In this document: piece after piece, positions 718 through 25,298 of the stretch
Layout of the letters: the number at the start of each line of letters is the position of its first letter
Position numbering within the stretch: position 1 is the stretch's first letter
Source of the DNA: Dehalococcoidia bacterium
GTDB taxonomy: Bacteria > Chloroflexota > Dehalococcoidia > Lucifugimonadales > Australimonadaceae
Direction: 5' to 3'
Length of the DNA stretch: 64,000 nt
Assembly: GCA_965219845.1 (NCBI GenBank)
Contig: CBDCOP010000004.1
Location: 129,726 to 193,725 of the forward strand
The notes under the pieces: model-generated
Seen by the model: the letters and a program-made list of their open reading frames with translations, nothing else
Databases searched by the model: none
What the model was told of the DNA's origin: nothing
Made by a program: the position numbers and the translations under genes

Positions 718-1176
718 TCACCCGCGCTTCGCCTTGCTGCGCGCCGACTCGTAGAACGAAAGGAAGTCGTCGACGCTCGTGCGTGCTATCGTCTCGCCGA
801 TCAAATCGAGCGGGAGGTCGGCGAGGCGTTTGAAGCGCACGCACGACTTGCCCATGTCCAGCCGCTTGCCGCTCGCCGCGTAGGCGGACGTGAACCACTC
901 CAGCGTCTGCGGGTCGCCGTAGACGTTGTTCAGGTAGACCGCCATGTAGCGCTTCTGCGACGCGAGCGCGGCAAGTTGCAGCGCCTGCTTGTTGTAGGTG
1001 ACCGGGTACCGGCTCAGCGGCACCACGTAGCCGATCATGCCGAACTGCATGCGCTCCTCGTAGCCGTCCGGCAGGTTGTCCAGCACCACCCGGCGCACCG
1101 CTTCTATCGCGTCGCGTCGCTCCTCCGGCAGTCCGGCAAGGTACTCCTCAACCGTTGCCGCCTCGCTCTTGACCAT
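718..1176 (-). CDS. DUF1801 (YdhG-like) domain protein
   Basis: 152-aa ORF. The N-terminal 'VEEYLAGLPEERRDAIEAVRRVV' and the overall size match the DUF1801/YdhG pattern. Confidence 0.7.
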   Translation of the reverse strand: MVKSEAATVEEYLAGLPEERRDAIEAVRRVVLDNLPDGYEERMQFGMIGYVVPLSRYPVTYNKQALQLAALASQKRYMAVYLNNVYGDPQTLEWFTSAYAASGKRLDMGKSCVRFKRLADLPLDLIGETIARTSVDDFLSFYESARSKAKRG

Positions 1177-1265
1177 GTGACGCTCCTCTCGCCGCGCCGC
1201 GCGCGGGTTTGTTGCACGGCGCGAAAGGTGTAATCTTCTGCCATCCGTCTGAGGGAGGGACAGCG

Positions 1266-2324
1266 ATGCCCATCATAGACGCTGACTGCCACGTTATCGA
1301 AAGCGAACAGACCTGGGAGTACCTCGACCCGGCCGACCACGCATACAAACCCGCCTCCATGTTCGATCCCAACCGGCCCGACAGGCCCATCTGGATCATA
1401 GACGGTAAACACCGCCAGCGGCCCTTCACCACCGGAGGGACCGGCTCCGCCGCCGAGGAACTCTCCGGCTTCTCAGAGACGTCGCAAGCGACACGGACAC
1501 TCGCCGACATCACCGCGCGCCTCGCCCACATGGACGAGCTCGGGGTCGACGTGCAGGTGCTCTTCCCCACTATCTTCCTCACCCGCATCTCCGAGAACCC
1601 CGCCGTGGAGCTCGCGCTCACCAAGAGCTACAACCGCTGGCTCGCCGACATCTGGGCCGAGAGCGACGGACGCCTCCGCTGGGCCGTCGTCCCGCCGCTC
1701 AACTCGATGGACGAGGTCGAGGAGCAGTTGCGCTACGGCAAGGAGAACGGCGCGTGCGGCATCTTCATGCGAGGATTCGAGGGCGACCGGCGCCTCGTGG
1801 ACCCGCATTTCGATCCGCTCTACGAGGCGGCGCAGGAGTACGACATGCCGGTGTGCATCCATGCCGGATGCGGCAACCCCGAGTTCGTCGGACTGACCGA
1901 GGCCGACGCCTACTCCCGGAACAAGCTGCCCATCATCAGCGCGTTCCACTCCATGCTCTACCGGGGCCTGTGGCAGCGCTTCCCGCGCCTGCGTGCCGGC
2001 TTCGTGGAGGGCGCGGCCAACTGGGTGCCTTACATCCTCAACGAGGTGCAGCACCGCGCACGCCGCGACGGCAACGCGTTCGACTCCGAGAACCTCATGG
2101 CCGACAGCCGCATGTACGTCAGCTGCCAGACGAACGACGACCTGCCCTACATCTTCGCGAACGCATCAGAGGACAACTTCATGATCGGCTCCGACTACGG
2201 CCACTCCGACACCTCCAGCGAGCTGGAGGCGCTCAAGTCGCTGAAGACGAGCGGCCTGCTGGAGCCCCGCATCGTCGACAAGGTCCTCTCGGACAACCCC
2301 GCGCGCCTCTACGCCATCGAGTAG
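1266..2324 (+). CDS. amidohydrolase family protein (amidohydrolase_2 / ACMSD-like)
   Basis: ORF track gives 1209..2324. I moved the start to ATG 1266, which is preceded by GGAGGGA. It has an 'IIDADCHV' N-terminus and a 'IGSDYGHSD' C-terminal motif, and is a paralog of 17711..18811. Confidence 0.85.
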   Translation: MPIIDADCHVIESEQTWEYLDPADHAYKPASMFDPNRPDRPIWIIDGKHRQRPFTTGGTGSAAEELSGFSETSQATRTLADITARLAHMDELGVDVQVLFPTIFLTRISENPAVELALTKSYNRWLADIWAESDGRLRWAVVPPLNSMDEVEEQLRYGKENGACGIFMRGFEGDRRLVDPHFDPLYEAAQEYDMPVCIHAGCGNPEFVGLTEADAYSRNKLPIISAFHSMLYRGLWQRFPRLRAGFVEGAANWVPYILNEVQHRARRDGNAFDSENLMADSRMYVSCQTNDDLPYIFANASEDNFMIGSDYGHSDTSSELEALKSLKTSGLLEPRIVDKVLSDNPARLYAIE

Positions 2325-2406
2325 CTCCACCAGGGGGGGCGCAGCCATCCGGAAAAAGGTTGGTGTCACCAGTCCGTACTGGTACAATGCTGCCAGGAGG
2401 CCTCCC

Positions 2407-3684
2407 ATGGCAAGAGTGCGAGGACGGGTGACAACAAAAACCGGGGCAGACGTGCAACTGGACACGAGCGATGAGCATCCCGCGTTGACGCCCGTGATGC
2501 GGCGGGTGGCAGGGGGGTACTGGGAGATCGTGAGGGCCAGGGCGGCAGAGCAGGCGCTCCCCATCGTCAGAGCGTGGCTGTGGCCATACCTAGACGTCGA
2601 AGGCACCTATGTCGTGTTCCTCGTCGTACACTTGGACGCCTTTGCCGAACGGGTGTCCGCATTCCACCACGGCCTCAACCCCGACCGCAGACACTGGTAC
2701 GCTCAACTCGACGCTGAAGACCAGAAAGCGAGTTTGCGGCTGGCGCTGACGCCGGTAGGGATCCGTGGCAGAGAAGCATCCGCCATGGCGCTTGACGGTG
2801 CGTCAATGAACCGTATTGATCTGGCAGACAATCTCAACGTCCTGCCCTGTATCGGAGATGGAGCGGCATCACTCATCTACATTGACCCTCCTTTCAATAC
2901 GGGCAAGGTGCAACGCCGTGAACGCCTGCGGACAGTACATGACGAGGAAGCAGGTGATCGCTCAGGCTTTCAAGGCCGCAGGTACCGCACGGCCAAACTT
3001 GGCGCTCTTGCCTTTCCCGATGTGTTCGAGGATTTTCTGGAGTTCATCAAGCCTCGGCTGGAACATGCTTACCGCATCCTCTCGCCAAGCGGATCTTTCT
3101 TCCTGCATATCGACTACCGAGAAGTCCACTACTGCAAAGTGCTCCTGGATTCCATCTTCGGCCACGAATGCTTCATGAACGAAATTGTCTGGGCATACGA
3201 CTATGGCGGACGACCGAAAGACCGATGGCCAGCCAAGCACGATACCCTGCTCTGGTACGTGAAAAACCCACGCTGCTATACGTTCAACTATGAGGCAATC
3301 GACCGTATTCCATACATGGCGCCTGGGCTAGTGGGACCAGAGAAGGCAGCCAGAGGCAAGACGCCAACCGACGTATGGTGGCAAACCATCGTTCCTACAA
3401 ATGGGCGGGAGCGGACAGGCTATCCAACGCAGAAACCACTCCCTATCCTAGAACGCATCGTGAAGGTGCATTCCAACCCGGGCGACTTGGTGCTGGATTT
3501 CTTCGCAGGCTCAGGTACTACAGGAGAGGCGGCAGCTCGCAATGGAAGGCGATTCTGGCTTATCGACAGCAGCCCTGACGCTGCTCGCGTTATGGCAAGA
3601 CGCCTCGCTTTCAGTAATCCAGAGTGCGTGGGATTTAGCCCTGAACATATAAACTCTCAGGCATCCTTGAAAGGGATTCTATGA
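2407..3684 (+). CDS. site-specific DNA methyltransferase, beta-class N4/N6 (PF01555-like)
   Basis: Carries 'IYIDPPFNTG' (DPPF catalytic motif), then 'YPTQKP' and 'DFFAGSGTT' (AdoMet site). GC drops after about 2790, so the real start may be ATG 2785 or 2806. The 126-aa N-terminal extension is of uncertain status. Confidence 0.85.
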   Translation: MARVRGRVTTKTGADVQLDTSDEHPALTPVMRRVAGGYWEIVRARAAEQALPIVRAWLWPYLDVEGTYVVFLVVHLDAFAERVSAFHHGLNPDRRHWYAQLDAEDQKASLRLALTPVGIRGREASAMALDGASMNRIDLADNLNVLPCIGDGAASLIYIDPPFNTGKVQRRERLRTVHDEEAGDRSGFQGRRYRTAKLGALAFPDVFEDFLEFIKPRLEHAYRILSPSGSFFLHIDYREVHYCKVLLDSIFGHECFMNEIVWAYDYGGRPKDRWPAKHDTLLWYVKNPRCYTFNYEAIDRIPYMAPGLVGPEKAARGKTPTDVWWQTIVPTNGRERTGYPTQKPLPILERIVKVHSNPGDLVLDFFAGSGTTGEAAARNGRRFWLIDSSPDAARVMARRLAFSNPECVGFSPEHINSQASLKGIL

Positions 3685-4232
3685 CACGGCGCCACATCCA
3701 AGACCCTGAAGTTCAATGGCTAGCAGCCATCGCTGCATCGATTGAGCCCGATTACACATCTGAAGAAGACGAATGGTTAGCAAGTCCGTTCGGTTGGATA
3801 AAACAAAAGCCATCACGTACAGTCGGAAAAATCTTTGAGCAACTAGTGGCTGGTTGGTGTGCTGCTAAAGAATTTGATGTGACTGCCCCACCAAACTCGG
3901 ATTCCGACAGAGTAATCGGTGGGCTCAGAGCTGAAATCAAGGGCTCCACTCTATGGAAGGGTGGTGGGCTCAAGTTCCAGCAGATACGAGATCAAGAGTA
4001 TGACATCGTAATCTGCCTAGGCATACATCCCTTCGACGCCCAATGCTGGATAATTCCGAAGAGTGTATTGATGCAACATCCCGAAGGAGTTGTTTCTCAA
4101 CACGGAGGACAAGCTGGTACGGACACTGCATGGCTTGGCTTCAGCGCAGACAATCCGCCACGATGGCTGAGTCAGTGGGGAGGAAGACTCTCGGACGCGC
4201 ACCAAGTCCTACGCAACCTTACCGGTAGTTGA
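3681..4232 (+). CDS. putative type II restriction endonuclease (PD-(D/E)xK-like)
   Basis: 183-aa ORF whose ATG overlaps the methylase stop (ATGA). 'SDRVIGGLRAEIKGS' gives D-x8-E-x-K. One 60-nt line I counted is 43% GC. Confidence 0.5.
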   Translation: MTRRHIQDPEVQWLAAIAASIEPDYTSEEDEWLASPFGWIKQKPSRTVGKIFEQLVAGWCAAKEFDVTAPPNSDSDRVIGGLRAEIKGSTLWKGGGLKFQQIRDQEYDIVICLGIHPFDAQCWIIPKSVLMQHPEGVVSQHGGQAGTDTAWLGFSADNPPRWLSQWGGRLSDAHQVLRNLTGS

Positions 4233-20475: not shown

Positions 20476-21609
20476 TTACGCAGTGCCGAACGCCTTCCGC
20501 AGCTCGCCTGCCGCCTCGTTGATGGCGTCCCACGTCCGCGTGAACGGGACCCCCGCGTTGAACAACGCGTGGACCTGCCCGTCGTAGCGGCTCAGCACCG
20601 TCGGCACGCCCGCCTCGCGCAGCCGCTCCGCGTACGCCTCCCCCTCGTCGCGCAGCGGGTCGTACTCGCACGTCAGCACGAACGCCGACGCCAGGCCGGA
20701 CAGGTCGTCAGCCGCCATCGGAGCGACGTACGGGTTGGAGGCGTCCGCCTCGGTGGACACGTAGCAGTCCCAGAAGTAGCGCATCGTATCGTAGGAGAGG
20801 CCGTAGCCCTCCGCGTTCTCCACGTAGGACGGACGCTCGAAGTCGTTGTCGACCACCGGACAGATGAGCGACTGGTGCACGAGACGTGGCCCGCCCTCGT
20901 CCCGCACGCGCAGCGCCACCGCCGCGGCGAGGTTCCCGCCCGCGCTCGAACCGGCGACCGCCAGCCGCGACGGGTCGCCGCCGAGGGATGCCGCGTTCGC
21001 AGCCGCCCACTCCGTCGCCGCATAGCAGTCGTCGAGCGGGACCGGGAACCTGTGCTCGGGCGCCAGCCGGTAGTCCACGGACACGACTATGCTGCCCGAT
21101 CTGTTCGCGAGCGCCCGGCACGTCGGGTCGTTCGTCTCGATGCTGCCGACCACCCAGCCGCCGCCGTGGAACCACACGCACACAGGCAATCCCGTCGTGT
21201 CGAGCGATCCCGTCGTGTCGAGCAATCCCGTCGTTCCTGCGGAGGCAGGGACCTCGCCCCCGCCGCCGTCATTCCCGCCTTCACCTCCGTCATTCCCGCG
21301 AAGGCGGGAATCCAGTGTGCCCCTCTCTCCCCCTGGGAGACCCTGCCTGTTCCCCTCTCCCTCTGGGAGAGGGTTAGGGTGAGGGCCAACCGGAACGTAC
21401 ACCCGCACCGGTACGTCGCCGTGCGGCCCCGGCGCGGCGAGGTCGCTCACGGACGCGACCTCCGGCCCGGGGATGCGCGGCTGCGCCTCCGACATCGCGC
21501 GCGCCTCCTCGGGGCTCACCTCGTGTTGGGTGGGCAAGCCCATGGCGGCTTGCTTCTCCAACGAGGCTTTCGCTTCAGGGTCGAGCGGCAAGACGCGTCT
21601 CCTTCGCAC
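20476..21609 (-). CDS. alpha/beta hydrolase, HSL-type esterase/lipase
   Basis: 'WFHGGGW' oxyanion motif and 'GSSAGGNLA' nucleophile elbow. It carries a repeat-derived low-complexity insert just N-terminal of HGGG. Confidence 0.85.
21188..21390. repeat. intragenic composite of repeat families A and B plus an 18-bp tandem repeat
   Basis: It contains gtcgttcctgcggaggcaggg, attcccgcgaaggcgggaat and cccctctccctctgggagagggttagggtgaggg, all inside the esterase ORF. Confidence 0.75.
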
Positions 21610-21653
21610 CGGCTGCGCCGGAGTATACGCGAGGAACGCTGAAATCGTAGGCT

Positions 21654-21694
21654 GATCCCCTCTCCCTACAAGGGGAGAGGGTTAGGGTGAGGGT
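21654..21694. repeat. repeat family A unit
   Basis: Sequence is gatcccctctccctacaaggggagagggttagggtgagggt. Confidence 0.8.
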
Positions 21695-21737
21695 ACTGCG
21701 GGGGCGGAGTGGGGTGTCTGCGATGTGAAGGGTTGCC

Positions 21738-22791
21738 CTACGCGGTGCCGAACGCCTTCCGCAGTTCGCCGGCTGTCTCGTTGATGGCGTTCCACGTCCG
21801 GACGAACGGCATCCCCGCGTTGAAGAACGCGTGGATCATCCCGTCGTACCGCGTCAGCTTCGTCGGCACGCCCGCCTCCCGCAAGCGCGCCGCGTACGCC
21901 TCTCCCTCGTCGCGCAGCGGGTCGTACTCACACGTCAGCACGAACGCCGGAGGCAGACCGGACAAGGTCCTCCGCAAGCATCGGCGCAACGTAGGGATTG
22001 GACGCGTCCGCCTCGCTGGACAGGTAGCAGTCCCAGAAGTAGACCATCGACGCGTAGGAGAGGCCGTAACCCGCTCCGTTCTCGGCATAGGACGGTCGGC
22101 TGTAGTCCTTGTCTGTTACCGGGTAGATGAGCGACTGTTGCACGAGAGGTGGCCCGTTCTCGTCGCGCGCCCGCAGGGATATCGTTGCCGCGAGGTTCCC
22201 GCCCGCGCTCGCTCCCGCGACCGCGAGCCGGGACGGGTCACCGCCGAGCGACGCCGCGTTCGCCGCCGCCCACACCGTCGCCGCGTACGAATCGTCGAAC
22301 GGGATGGGGAACCGGTGCTCCGGCGCCAGCCGGTAGTCCACCGAAACGACGATGGCGCCTGACGCGTTCGCCAGCGCCCGGCACGTCGCGTCGTTCGTCG
22401 CAACGCTGCCGATGACCCAGCCGCCGCCGTGGAACCACATGCAGACGGGCAGCCCCGTCGTTCCTGCGGAGGCAGGAACCCCGCCCCCGCCGCCGTTATT
22501 CCCGCCTTCACCTCCGTCATTCCCGCGAAGGCGGGAATCCAGTGTGCCCCCCTCTCCCCCTGGGAGAGGGTTAGGGTGAGGGCGAGCCGGAACGTACACC
22601 CGCACGGGCACGTCGCCGTGCGGCCCCGGCGCAATGTGGTCGCTGACGGACGCCACCTCCGGCCCCGGCAGGTTCGGCCGGGCCGCCTGCAGCGCGCGCG
22701 CCTCCTCCGGGCTCGACTCATGCGGCTCGAGCACGCCCATCTCGACACGCTTCTCCAACGACGCCTTCGCTTCAGGGTCCAGCGGCATCAC
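21738..22791 (-). pseudogene. HSL-type esterase paralog interrupted by a 1-nt frameshift
   Basis: ORF 21928..22791 carries HGGG and GASAGGNLA and ends just after '[12 protein letters not shown]'. ORF 21738..22088 continues '[21 protein letters not shown]' in another frame. Compared with copy 1, there is an extra base at about 21964 (acaagg versus acagg). Confidence 0.7.
22451..22585. repeat. intragenic composite of repeat families A and B, shorter version
   Basis: The same elements sit at the same position as in copy 1, but it lacks the 18-bp duplication and one partial family A unit. Confidence 0.75.
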
Positions 22792-23992: not shown

Positions 23993-24286
23993 TCCCCTCT
24001 CCCTCGAGGGGAGAGGGTTAGGGTGAGGGTGAACCGGCGGGGCCTGTGGGGGAGCGTGTCATGCAGAACGGAGGCTCGGTCGTTCCTGCGGAGGCAGGAA
24101 CCTCGCCCCTGGCTGGTGTAGGGGCGTCCCTTGTGGGCGCCCGATCCCGTCATTCCCGCGCAGGCGGGAATCTCGCCCCCCTGGCGGGTCTGATCCCCTC
24201 TCCTGGGGGAGAGGGTTAGGGTGAGGGCGAATCGGGGCTGGTGTGGGGTGCCTGTCATTTCAAGCGTAGCCGAGAAATCTCTCGGG
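23991..24286. repeat. dense cluster of repeat units in the order A, B, B, A, C-half
   Basis: A at 23991-24030, B at 24078-24110, B at 24149-24180, A at 24192-24227, and a C half-element at 24253-24286. Confidence 0.75.
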
Positions 24287-24415: not shown

Positions 24416-25298
24416 ATGGTAATCACAGCATCTCCGATTCCGGCAGTGAACGTGGCCGCAGTGCCGCAGCGCAGCCCATTGCGTTACCCTGGCGGTAAGA
24501 CGTGGCTCATTCCTCATATACGTGTCTGGCTCCGTTCCATAGAACGGCCTCGGTTGCTCATTGAGCCGTTCGCAGGCGGCGGCATCGTCTCACTCACAGC
24601 GGTCATGGAGAACCTCGCCGACGAATCACTGATGGCAGAACTCGACGAAGACGTGGCGGCCCTGTGGAAGGCAGCCTTGCACCACAGTTCGGAACTGGCA
24701 GACCGAGTACGCGAGTTCACACCAACACGCGAGTCAGTTGATCAGCTCTCCCGTCTACACCCTGCGGATGTCGTGGAGCACGGCTTCCGAACGTTGGTCC
24801 TAAACCGTACACAGCGCGGAGGCGTCCTCGCGCACGGGGCGTCCTTCACCCGATACGGGGAAAACGGGGCAGGGCTTGCGGTCGCGCTGGTACCCTGACA
24901 CCCTCATCCGTCGACTGCGCGCTATTGCCGAGTACGCATGCCGCATCACCTTCCACGAGACAGACGGTATGCAGATGCTTGCCTCGCTGCTCGACCAGCC
25001 CCATGACGACGTGGCGTTGTTCATTGACCCGCCATACACGGGAGACGGGGGAAAACGCGCAGGGAGACGCCTCTACGCGCACAACGGCGTTAATCACGCC
25101 CGCCTCTTTTCGATGCTCGCAGAAAGCAGTGCAAACTTCCTGATGACCTATGACCGCTCTCTCGAAATCGAGTCTTTGATTGAGTCATACGGGTTTCAAG
25201 CCGTCCAAGTAGTGATGAAGAATGGGCACCACGCCTTACTGCCGGAGCTTGTGATTACTCGATACCCGGCCTTCTCAAAGGGACTTACTCTTGCCTGA
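24416..25298 (+). pseudogene. Dam-like (D12 class) N6-adenine DNA methyltransferase, frameshifted
   Basis: 'PLRYPGGK' and 'EPFAGGG' lie in frame 1 (24416..24898). 'RSRWYP' and 'FIDPPYTG' lie in the ORF 24876..25298. One extra base at about 24876-24879 would join 'GENGAGL' to 'RSRWYP'. Confidence 0.7.

Follow-up and report, generated by a model that had tools for sequence, protein, structure and literature searches.

In-frame palindromic repeats in a variable loop of tandem HSL-type esterases from a Dehalococcoidia genus

Tandem esterase genes and their repeat-encoded inserts

The stretch of DNA analyzed here (64,000 nt, C4:129726-193725, hereafter the window) belongs to a Dehalococcoidia genome of 3.54 Mb with 65% GC, which is assembled in 9 contigs and labeled G000 below. 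It carries two esterase genes arranged in tandem on the minus strand, both of the hormone-sensitive lipase (HSL) type (Abhydrolase_3, PF07859). In each gene, the segment between the strand VRVYVP and the motif LPVC(V/M)WFHGGGW is occupied by an insert that is translated in frame and composed of short palindromic repeats of three families, designated A, B, and C, two of which are repetitive extragenic palindromes (REPs) as described below. The relevant features are as follows (window coordinates).

20476-21609, minus strand: esterase copy 1, intact open reading frame (ORF), HSL/family IV, paralog clade c
21738-22788, minus strand: esterase copy 2, paralog clade b, lying in two frames (extra base near 21963) and otherwise full length to the usual stop
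21190-21390, minus strand: copy 1 insert, ~201 nt, residues ~74-140 (~67 residues), in-frame repeat mosaic
22453-22587, minus strand: copy 2 insert, ~135 nt, ~45 residues, in-frame mosaic of units C, B, half-B, and A
21227-21258, plus strand: REP A unit in copy 1, with CGTC tag, stem GTTCCTGC/GCAGGgAC, and loop GGAG; exact core 21230-21249
21287-21315, plus strand: REP B unit in copy 1, with CGTC tag, stem ATTCCCGC/GCGGGAAT, loop GAAG, and tail CCAG; exact core 21292-21311
21343-21385, plus strand: repeat C unit in copy 1, CCCCTCTCCC-loop-GGGAGAGGG followed by the tail TTAGGGTGAGGG; exact core 21365-21385
21654-21693, plus strand: intergenic repeat C between the esterase genes; exact core 21673-21693
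23993-24230, plus strand: intergenic mosaic arranged C-A-B-C from all three families, with the units on the strand that they occupy within the genes

Copy 1 scores 259.5 bits against the Pfam Abhydrolase_3 profile, and the N- and C-terminal parts of copy 2 score 188 and 63 bits, respectively (cut-off 25). The catalytic motifs of copy 1, namely HGGG (148-151), GSSAG (G220-S-S222-A-G224), D317 within DPLRD, and H347, are invariant or nearly so in a protein alignment (A1), and the closest solved structure is Est8 (4ypv, E 2.5e-79). By profile, motifs, and predicted fold, copy 1 can be assigned to the HSL/family IV esterases. Its named homologs are proteins of metagenome-assembled genomes (MAGs) of Chloroflexota/Dehalococcoidia, and a profile search of genome contigs with alignment A1 recovered mainly distant HSL esterases from other phyla, the best of them at 70% identity. 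The ORF as called opens at GTG 21609; the true start is probably TTG 21589-21591, giving a protein of 371 aa, because orthologs open with MPLDP and a GAAGGAG lies 8 nt upstream.

The esterases of G000 share with Est8, EstDL136 (6aae), and EST2 (1evq) the overall fold, the HGGG and GxSxG motifs, and the DPLxD/His triad at ~40% identity. They differ in the connection between strands β2 and β3, which comprises 3-6 residues in the solved HSL members (only 3 in Est8, between '..VRIYTPVA' and 'AALPVLVYFHGGGW') and 45-67 repeat-encoded residues, predicted to be disordered, in the proteins studied here. The distance from VRxY to HGGGW in homologs outside the genus is 23 aa. Read along the gene strand, the copy 1 insert consists of C, a 30-nt partial duplicate of C, B, half-B, A, and two copies of the 18-nt sequence 'acgacgggatYgctcgac'; the number of stop codons in either insert is zero. 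An earlier note on this DNA, made from the sequence alone, had reported both inserts, their translations, and the lack of stop codons, all of which is confirmed here with boundaries moved by 2-3 nt.

The window was searched for each unit with 3 mismatches or fewer allowed, for which the chance expectation is 0.01 per unit. Unit A (GTCGTTCCTGCGGAGGCAGG) has 4 matches, exact at 21230 and 22457; unit B (ATTCCCGCGAAGGCGGGAAT) has 5, exact at 21292 and 22519; and unit C (GGGAGAGGGTTAGGGTGAGGG) has 10, exact at 21365 and 22562. Genome-wide, 269 copies of A, 97 of B, and 273 of C were found at up to 2 mismatches, whereas the threshold of up to 3 mismatches yields 818 matches in 500 clusters for the three families, with ~23 clusters situated in long ORFs that show coding-type GC content at third codon positions (GC3) on both sides. 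These matches in the window and the genome bear out the proposal that both inserts are made of the repeat families that fill intergenic DNA.

The consensus of A (269 copies) reads CCGTC-GTTCCTGC-GGAG-GCAGGAAC-CTCGC (CCGTCGTTCCTGCGGAGGCAGGAACCTCGC), and that of B (97 copies) reads CCGTC-ATTCCCGC-GaAG-GCGGGAAT-CCAG; both have a CGTC tag at one end, an 8-bp stem, and a 4-nt loop. CGTC-tagged REPs are characterized by a stem of 8-9 bp and a loop of 4-5 nt (Table 1 in Di Nocera, De Gregorio & Rocco, 2013, BMC Genomics 14:522, PMC3733652), and A and B can be classified as such by their tag, stem, loop, and mainly intergenic dispersal. Family C is a different hairpin that carries neither a CGTC nor a GTAG tag and falls outside the definition of CGTC REPs. 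All six reading frames of A are open, as are five of six for B and about one-half for C, which explains why in-frame copies lack stop codons. A search for the Y1 transposase associated with REPs (RAYT) gave no match to PF01797 in G000, while 6 of 14 control genomes scored, and RAYT was ruled out as the mobilizer on this ground.

The composite itself does not behave as a mobile unit. In a BLAST search of the genome with the copy 2 insert, only partial sub-combinations were recovered beyond the two genes, the best of them being the intergenic mosaic at 23993-24230 (68.6% identity over 153 nt), and no pair of terminal inverted repeats (TIRs) or target-site duplication was found flanking the esterase inserts. 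The composite had been described as REP/MITE-like; the REP units stand, whereas the interpretation as a miniature inverted-repeat transposable element (MITE) is ruled out, since the insert combines units that each recur separately, the full composite occurs nowhere else in the genome, and flanking TIRs or duplications are lacking.

Copy 2 is divided by one surplus base near 21963 ('gacctt-g-tccggt', gene strand) into the ORFs 21928-22791 and 21738-22088, so that its C-terminal 100 codons are moved to another frame. The assignment of both genes to the HSL family therefore holds, whereas copy 2 is not intact in the assembly. The surplus base does not lie in a homopolymer, so it does not look like a typical long-read error; it may represent either a genuine frameshift of recent origin or a mistake in the assembly. 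Copy 2 otherwise looks constrained, with a ratio of nonsynonymous to synonymous substitution rates (dN/dS) of 0.16 against its closest ortholog (G008). A Dam-like adenine methyltransferase gene elsewhere in the window (24416-25298; RYPGGK ... DPPY) is likewise divided over two overlapping frames near 24876, probably by another single-base frameshift.

Variation of the loop across the genus

The distribution of the inserts was studied in G000 and 21 related species genomes, which together contain 47 esterase copies. At this locus, up to three old paralogs stand in tandem, namely a (313 aa), b (311 aa), and c (311 aa). A gene tree built without the loop columns resolves three paralog clades with support of 100, 99, and 94, and places copy 1 in clade c and copy 2 in clade b. 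More than one-half of the copies (28/47), distributed over all three clades, are free of inserts and have the loop VYVP(V/I)TDD(A/P)GPLPVC (VYVPVTDDAGPLPVC); the search for orthologs lacking the insert was thus successful in every clade. The remaining 19 copies bear inserts of +6 to +117 aa with differing combinations of units:

A only: G021c, G003b, G006c, G012
C only: G017c
C+B: G020a, G003c, G011b, G016c, G008a
C+A: G008b, G008c, G010, G018c
C+B+A: both G000 copies
C and a fourth REP: all three G005 copies

The presence and absence of inserts require at least 12 changes on the tree, at least 6 of which are forced by well-supported branches. A clean empty reference locus is provided by L001 (a 2.8-Mb contig of ERZ25069580), where positions 1004-3936 hold the full array of three paralogs (313, 311, and 311 aa) without inserts, followed by the same major facilitator superfamily (MFS) transporter gene as in the window. 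Among metagenomic relatives that are 93-95% identical to copy 1, the composite contains three A units in P0003 (388 aa) and no A unit in P0004 (351 aa), so that turnover can be seen even at this short distance.

The repeats themselves are unevenly distributed. The number of REP A copies ranges from 0 (G009) and 3 (G002, G004) to 236 (G006) and 251 (G000, the highest), which indicates that REPs expanded recently and unevenly among these congeneric species. Genomes with esterase inserts are richer in REP A (Mann-Whitney p = 0.04).

Leaving aside two indels (30 and 36 nt), the two G000 inserts share ~96% identity, as opposed to ~80% for the surrounding coding DNA. The composite common to both copies can be regarded as young, because the inserts differ at ~4% of sites, whereas the genes outside them have a synonymous divergence (dS) of 0.48. 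An insertion before the gene duplication is refuted by this difference, by the age of the a/b/c paralogs, which are older than the radiation of the genus, and by the occurrence of insert-free copies in all clades, where they make up the majority overall. Identical inserts also occur in different paralogs of sister species (G003_b = G006_c and G011_b = G003_c). The composite was probably copied between the G000 paralogs, and the best explanation of its route would be short-tract gene conversion between the tandem genes. The additional segments of copy 1 (the 30-nt partial duplicate of C and the two 18-nt repeats) look like products of slippage at unit boundaries.

In an AlphaFold2 model of copy 1 obtained with alignment A1 (pTM 0.75), residues 64-72 form strand β2 and residues 141-147 form strand β3, and the insert appears as a stretch predicted to be disordered between them (residues 81-138, pLDDT <50). 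A Foldseek comparison of the model with Est8 (4ypv; E 4e-28, TM-score 0.87 normalized to the target) gives an α/β-hydrolase fold with an N-terminal cap. The insert connects β2 to the N-terminal end of the 7-residue β3, and the HGGG oxyanion loop is at the opposite end of this strand. Judged from α/β-hydrolase topology, the insert and the catalytic site would lie at opposite edges of the sheet.

The insert-bearing genes are clearly under purifying selection, which is slightly relaxed: dN/dS is 0.11-0.20 in pairs with insert-bearing copies and 0.06-0.14 in insert-free pairs. The earlier note had described a tolerated surface loop next to the active-site entrance and an example of exaptation. Tolerance is supported by the purifying selection; the topology, however, points to the opposite end of β3, and exaptation finds no sign of a selected function in an insert that varies in length and content, is predicted to be disordered, and is absent from most orthologs.

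Turnover of the inserts and alternative explanations

We consider it likely that the β2-β3 loop of these esterases is a recurrent site at which the palindromic repeats of the genome land and are turned over, and that the resulting inserts are tolerated. An insertion or expansion with a length that is a multiple of three would simply be translated, since the units are mostly free of stops, and its product would be a disordered surface loop rich in Gly, Pro, and Glu at the β-sheet margin remote from the catalytic site. Once seeded, an insert would change by the addition of units, by duplication of partial units through slippage (as for the 30-nt and 2 x 18-nt segments of copy 1), and by deletion of parts. 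Gene conversion of short tracts, bounded by the near-identical VRVYVP and LPVC.WFHGGG segments, would shift the insert between tandem paralogs and would account for the presence of one young composite in both G000 copies. The enzyme would stay functional throughout, the insert being tolerated and not recruited for a function, and the same process may act genome- and genus-wide, in PyrG (CTP synthase), a DppD-like ATPase, LigA, and IleRS.

Several points weigh against recurrent insertion and tolerance as outlined above. Many branches within the paralog clades have little resolution, which makes any count of independent events approximate. Over their 90-nt flanks, the two G000 copies agree at 77 and 76 of 90 positions, compared with 67-80 and 73-79 in other genomes; a long conversion tract is ruled out by this lack of excess similarity, any conversion must have involved very short tracts, and the same mosaic may instead have been inserted in parallel in both copies. 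The placement of the insert with respect to the active site was judged from the order of secondary-structure elements and the fold topology. In copies with an insert, dN/dS is raised by a factor of 1.2-1.7, possibly through a mild cost or relaxed constraint, and, given the frameshift of copy 2 in the assembly, one or more of the insert-bearing genes may be decaying.

An alternative that we regard as improbable is a single ancient seeding, in which a REP was inserted into the loop on a single occasion, in the ancestor of the REP-rich members of the genus and perhaps ahead of the a/b/c duplication, then diversified in place and was lost precisely or nearly so in many lineages, the TDDAGP loop of insert-free copies being its footprint. 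The empty site (..ACGGACGACGCGGG..) does resemble the tagged end of REP A/B (GGAACGACGGGG), the empty loop is 2 aa longer than in the basal REP-poor G007 (PEGSGPFP) and in outgroups, and in PyrG all inserts begin at one nucleotide position, after 'gcgcag'. However, such a history needs many independent and almost identical clean deletions, each in frame and each restoring the same 25-aa loop, to arrive at 28 empty copies in three clades. The fourth REP of the G005 copies and the A-only and C-only states cannot be derived from each other by loss alone, and the likeness to a footprint is effectively one observation in a genome with 65% GC.

It is quite improbable that the loop is adaptive, i.e., a disordered tether or an element of solubility, oligomerization, or localization that is selected and possibly tuned in length. 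Such a role would be consistent with the recurrence of inserts at one loop of three paralogs in 13 species, always in one orientation, with the maintenance of reading frames at dN/dS well below 1, and with similar loops in essential enzymes. Nonetheless, amino acid conservation does not extend beyond the DNA repeat consensus, most orthologs lack an insert, and dN/dS is slightly higher, not lower, in its presence; the same peptides recur in unrelated proteins through different reading frames, as expected of tolerated selfish DNA. Finally, the scenario of the earlier note, by which a composite REP/MITE-like element was inserted once before the duplication and acquired a function by exaptation, as a loop at the entrance to the active site, is hardly credible: the same in-frame C-B-A composite in both G000 copies and the purifying selection on insert-bearing genes would agree with it, but the insert is much younger than the paralogs that bear it (~4% divergence vs. 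dS 0.48), most orthologs of both paralogs lack it, the composite is not repeated elsewhere in the genome, content and length vary freely (+6 to +117 aa), and the insert is predicted to be disordered and to lie at the far end of β3.

In-frame repeats in other genes and comparison with known systems

Units of A, B, or C are carried in frame by ~23 long ORFs of G000 with coding-type GC3 on both sides. The hosts confirmed by Pfam are LigA, PyrG, IleRS, and a DppD-like ABC ATPase, whereas a Lhr-like helicase, a methylmalonyl-CoA-mutase-like protein, a formate-dehydrogenase/NuoG-like protein, and an EamA-like transporter were recognized by reading the translations only. Two of the Pfam-confirmed hosts were compared with their orthologs across the genus:

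PyrG (CTP synthase): G000 C7:419980-421848, orthologs L158-L178; the loop from FMLR to DVVLVE varies between 15 and 93 aa across the genus
DppD-like ABC ATPase: G000 C4:286687-287757 (outside the window), orthologs L134-L155; the segment from QLME to EVLRM varies between 32 and 154 aa

The PyrG loop is filled by different REP units read in different frames, and every insert begins directly after 'gcgcag'. In the PyrG ortholog L174, a 57-nt unit is present twice, and the GCGCAGCAC direct repeat that surrounds it might just as well reflect tandem duplication. The loop of the DppD-like ATPase contains 21-nt tandem arrays of partial REPs that encode heptads of the GAGTTEK type. In the Dehalococcoidia MAGs studied here, such repeat-derived low-complexity segments in PyrG, LigA, and IleRS can mislead annotation, alignment, and structure prediction.

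Two further multi-copy gene families in G000 contain REPs at a fixed position. Terminase-like ORFs, recognized by eye (GANGSGKDW ... GVDVARFG), carry REP A in frame at one shared linker and read it in two frames, as PSFLRRQEP and VVPAEAGTS. A mobile-element gene of the P-loop ATPase type, present in three copies, has an A/B hybrid hairpin that is read as VIPAEAGIQ at the same position. Their locations are as follows.

Terminase-like ORFs: G000 C1:118508-119987, C7:1051133-1052636, C7:410736-412362, C1:666057-667770, C6:611174-612914
P-loop ATPase-type copies: G000 C1:470758-472642, C6:194367-195975, C7:171384-173040

It is possible, although unlikely, that the esterase loop is targeted and not simply tolerant. 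In this view, the empty allele (..ACGGACGACGCGGG.., antisense CGTCGTCCGTC) imitates the end of A/B that bears the CGTC tag and might provide a landing pad for REP-moving machinery or a homology anchor for REP-templated gene conversion; in PyrG and the DppD-like ATPase, the same nucleotide position has been refilled by different units. CGTC at the empty sites was rejected as proof of targeting, since GACG/CGTC is too common at 65% GC and three hot spots are too few. If targeting were true, the genus would offer a natural system for studying how CGTC REPs spread without a dedicated transposase.

Families A and B resemble the described CGTC/GTAG REPs (PMC3733652) in their tag, 8-bp stem, 4-nt loop, short tail, high copy number, mostly intergenic location, and lack of a dedicated RAYT. 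Intragenic GTAG/CGTC REPs, some of them wholly within ORFs and encoding 20-80 aa, were reported in Opitutus, Thauera, Xanthomonas, and other hosts, including genes for DNA ligase and tRNA synthetase, and different REPs were found at about one site in a single case, recB of Xanthomonas (PMC3733652). Chloroflexi are named there only among the phyla with GTAG repeats, and the CGTC REPs of the present genus are not described; our literature search on hot-spot behavior of intragenic REPs in Chloroflexi yielded nothing beyond this study. In contrast to the REPs described there, one loop is hypervariable here over 47 copies, three paralogs, and G000 plus 21 species, and the mosaics include an untagged hairpin family, tandem expansions of partial units, and probable transfer between paralogs.

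A second parallel is provided by Rickettsia palindromic elements (RPEs), which are found within protein-coding genes with the reading frame preserved (Ogata et al., 2000, cited in PMC3733652). As far as they are summarized in that source, RPEs share with the present repeats the character of selfish palindromes that lie in frame in many unrelated, functional, and often essential genes and are tolerated as a surface peptide. The esterase insert behaves like an RPE and is nevertheless not a member of this group, being set apart by its architecture (a mosaic, with the composite present only in two genes). RPE-1 elements are single units of ~100-150 bp, many of which are old and conserved among species, whereas the inserts studied here are mosaics of 25-40-nt hairpin units with rapid turnover between close species.

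The mosaic organization, with a variable number and order of units that are duplicated and deleted, is reminiscent of the REP clusters known as bacterial interspersed mosaic elements (BIMEs) in Enterobacteria; BIMEs, however, are extragenic by definition, whereas the esterase mosaic lies inside coding sequence and is read in frame. In-frame REPs are already known, and selfish palindromes read in frame represent a known, sparsely documented route to new protein loop sequence. To these systems the esterase locus adds an unusually rich record of hot-spot turnover and paralog transfer, in which a comparative series of empty, singly filled, and multiply filled alleles, putative slippage products, and probable transfers between paralogs illustrates the speed of loop turnover and its low cost to the enzyme (dN/dS ≤0.2).

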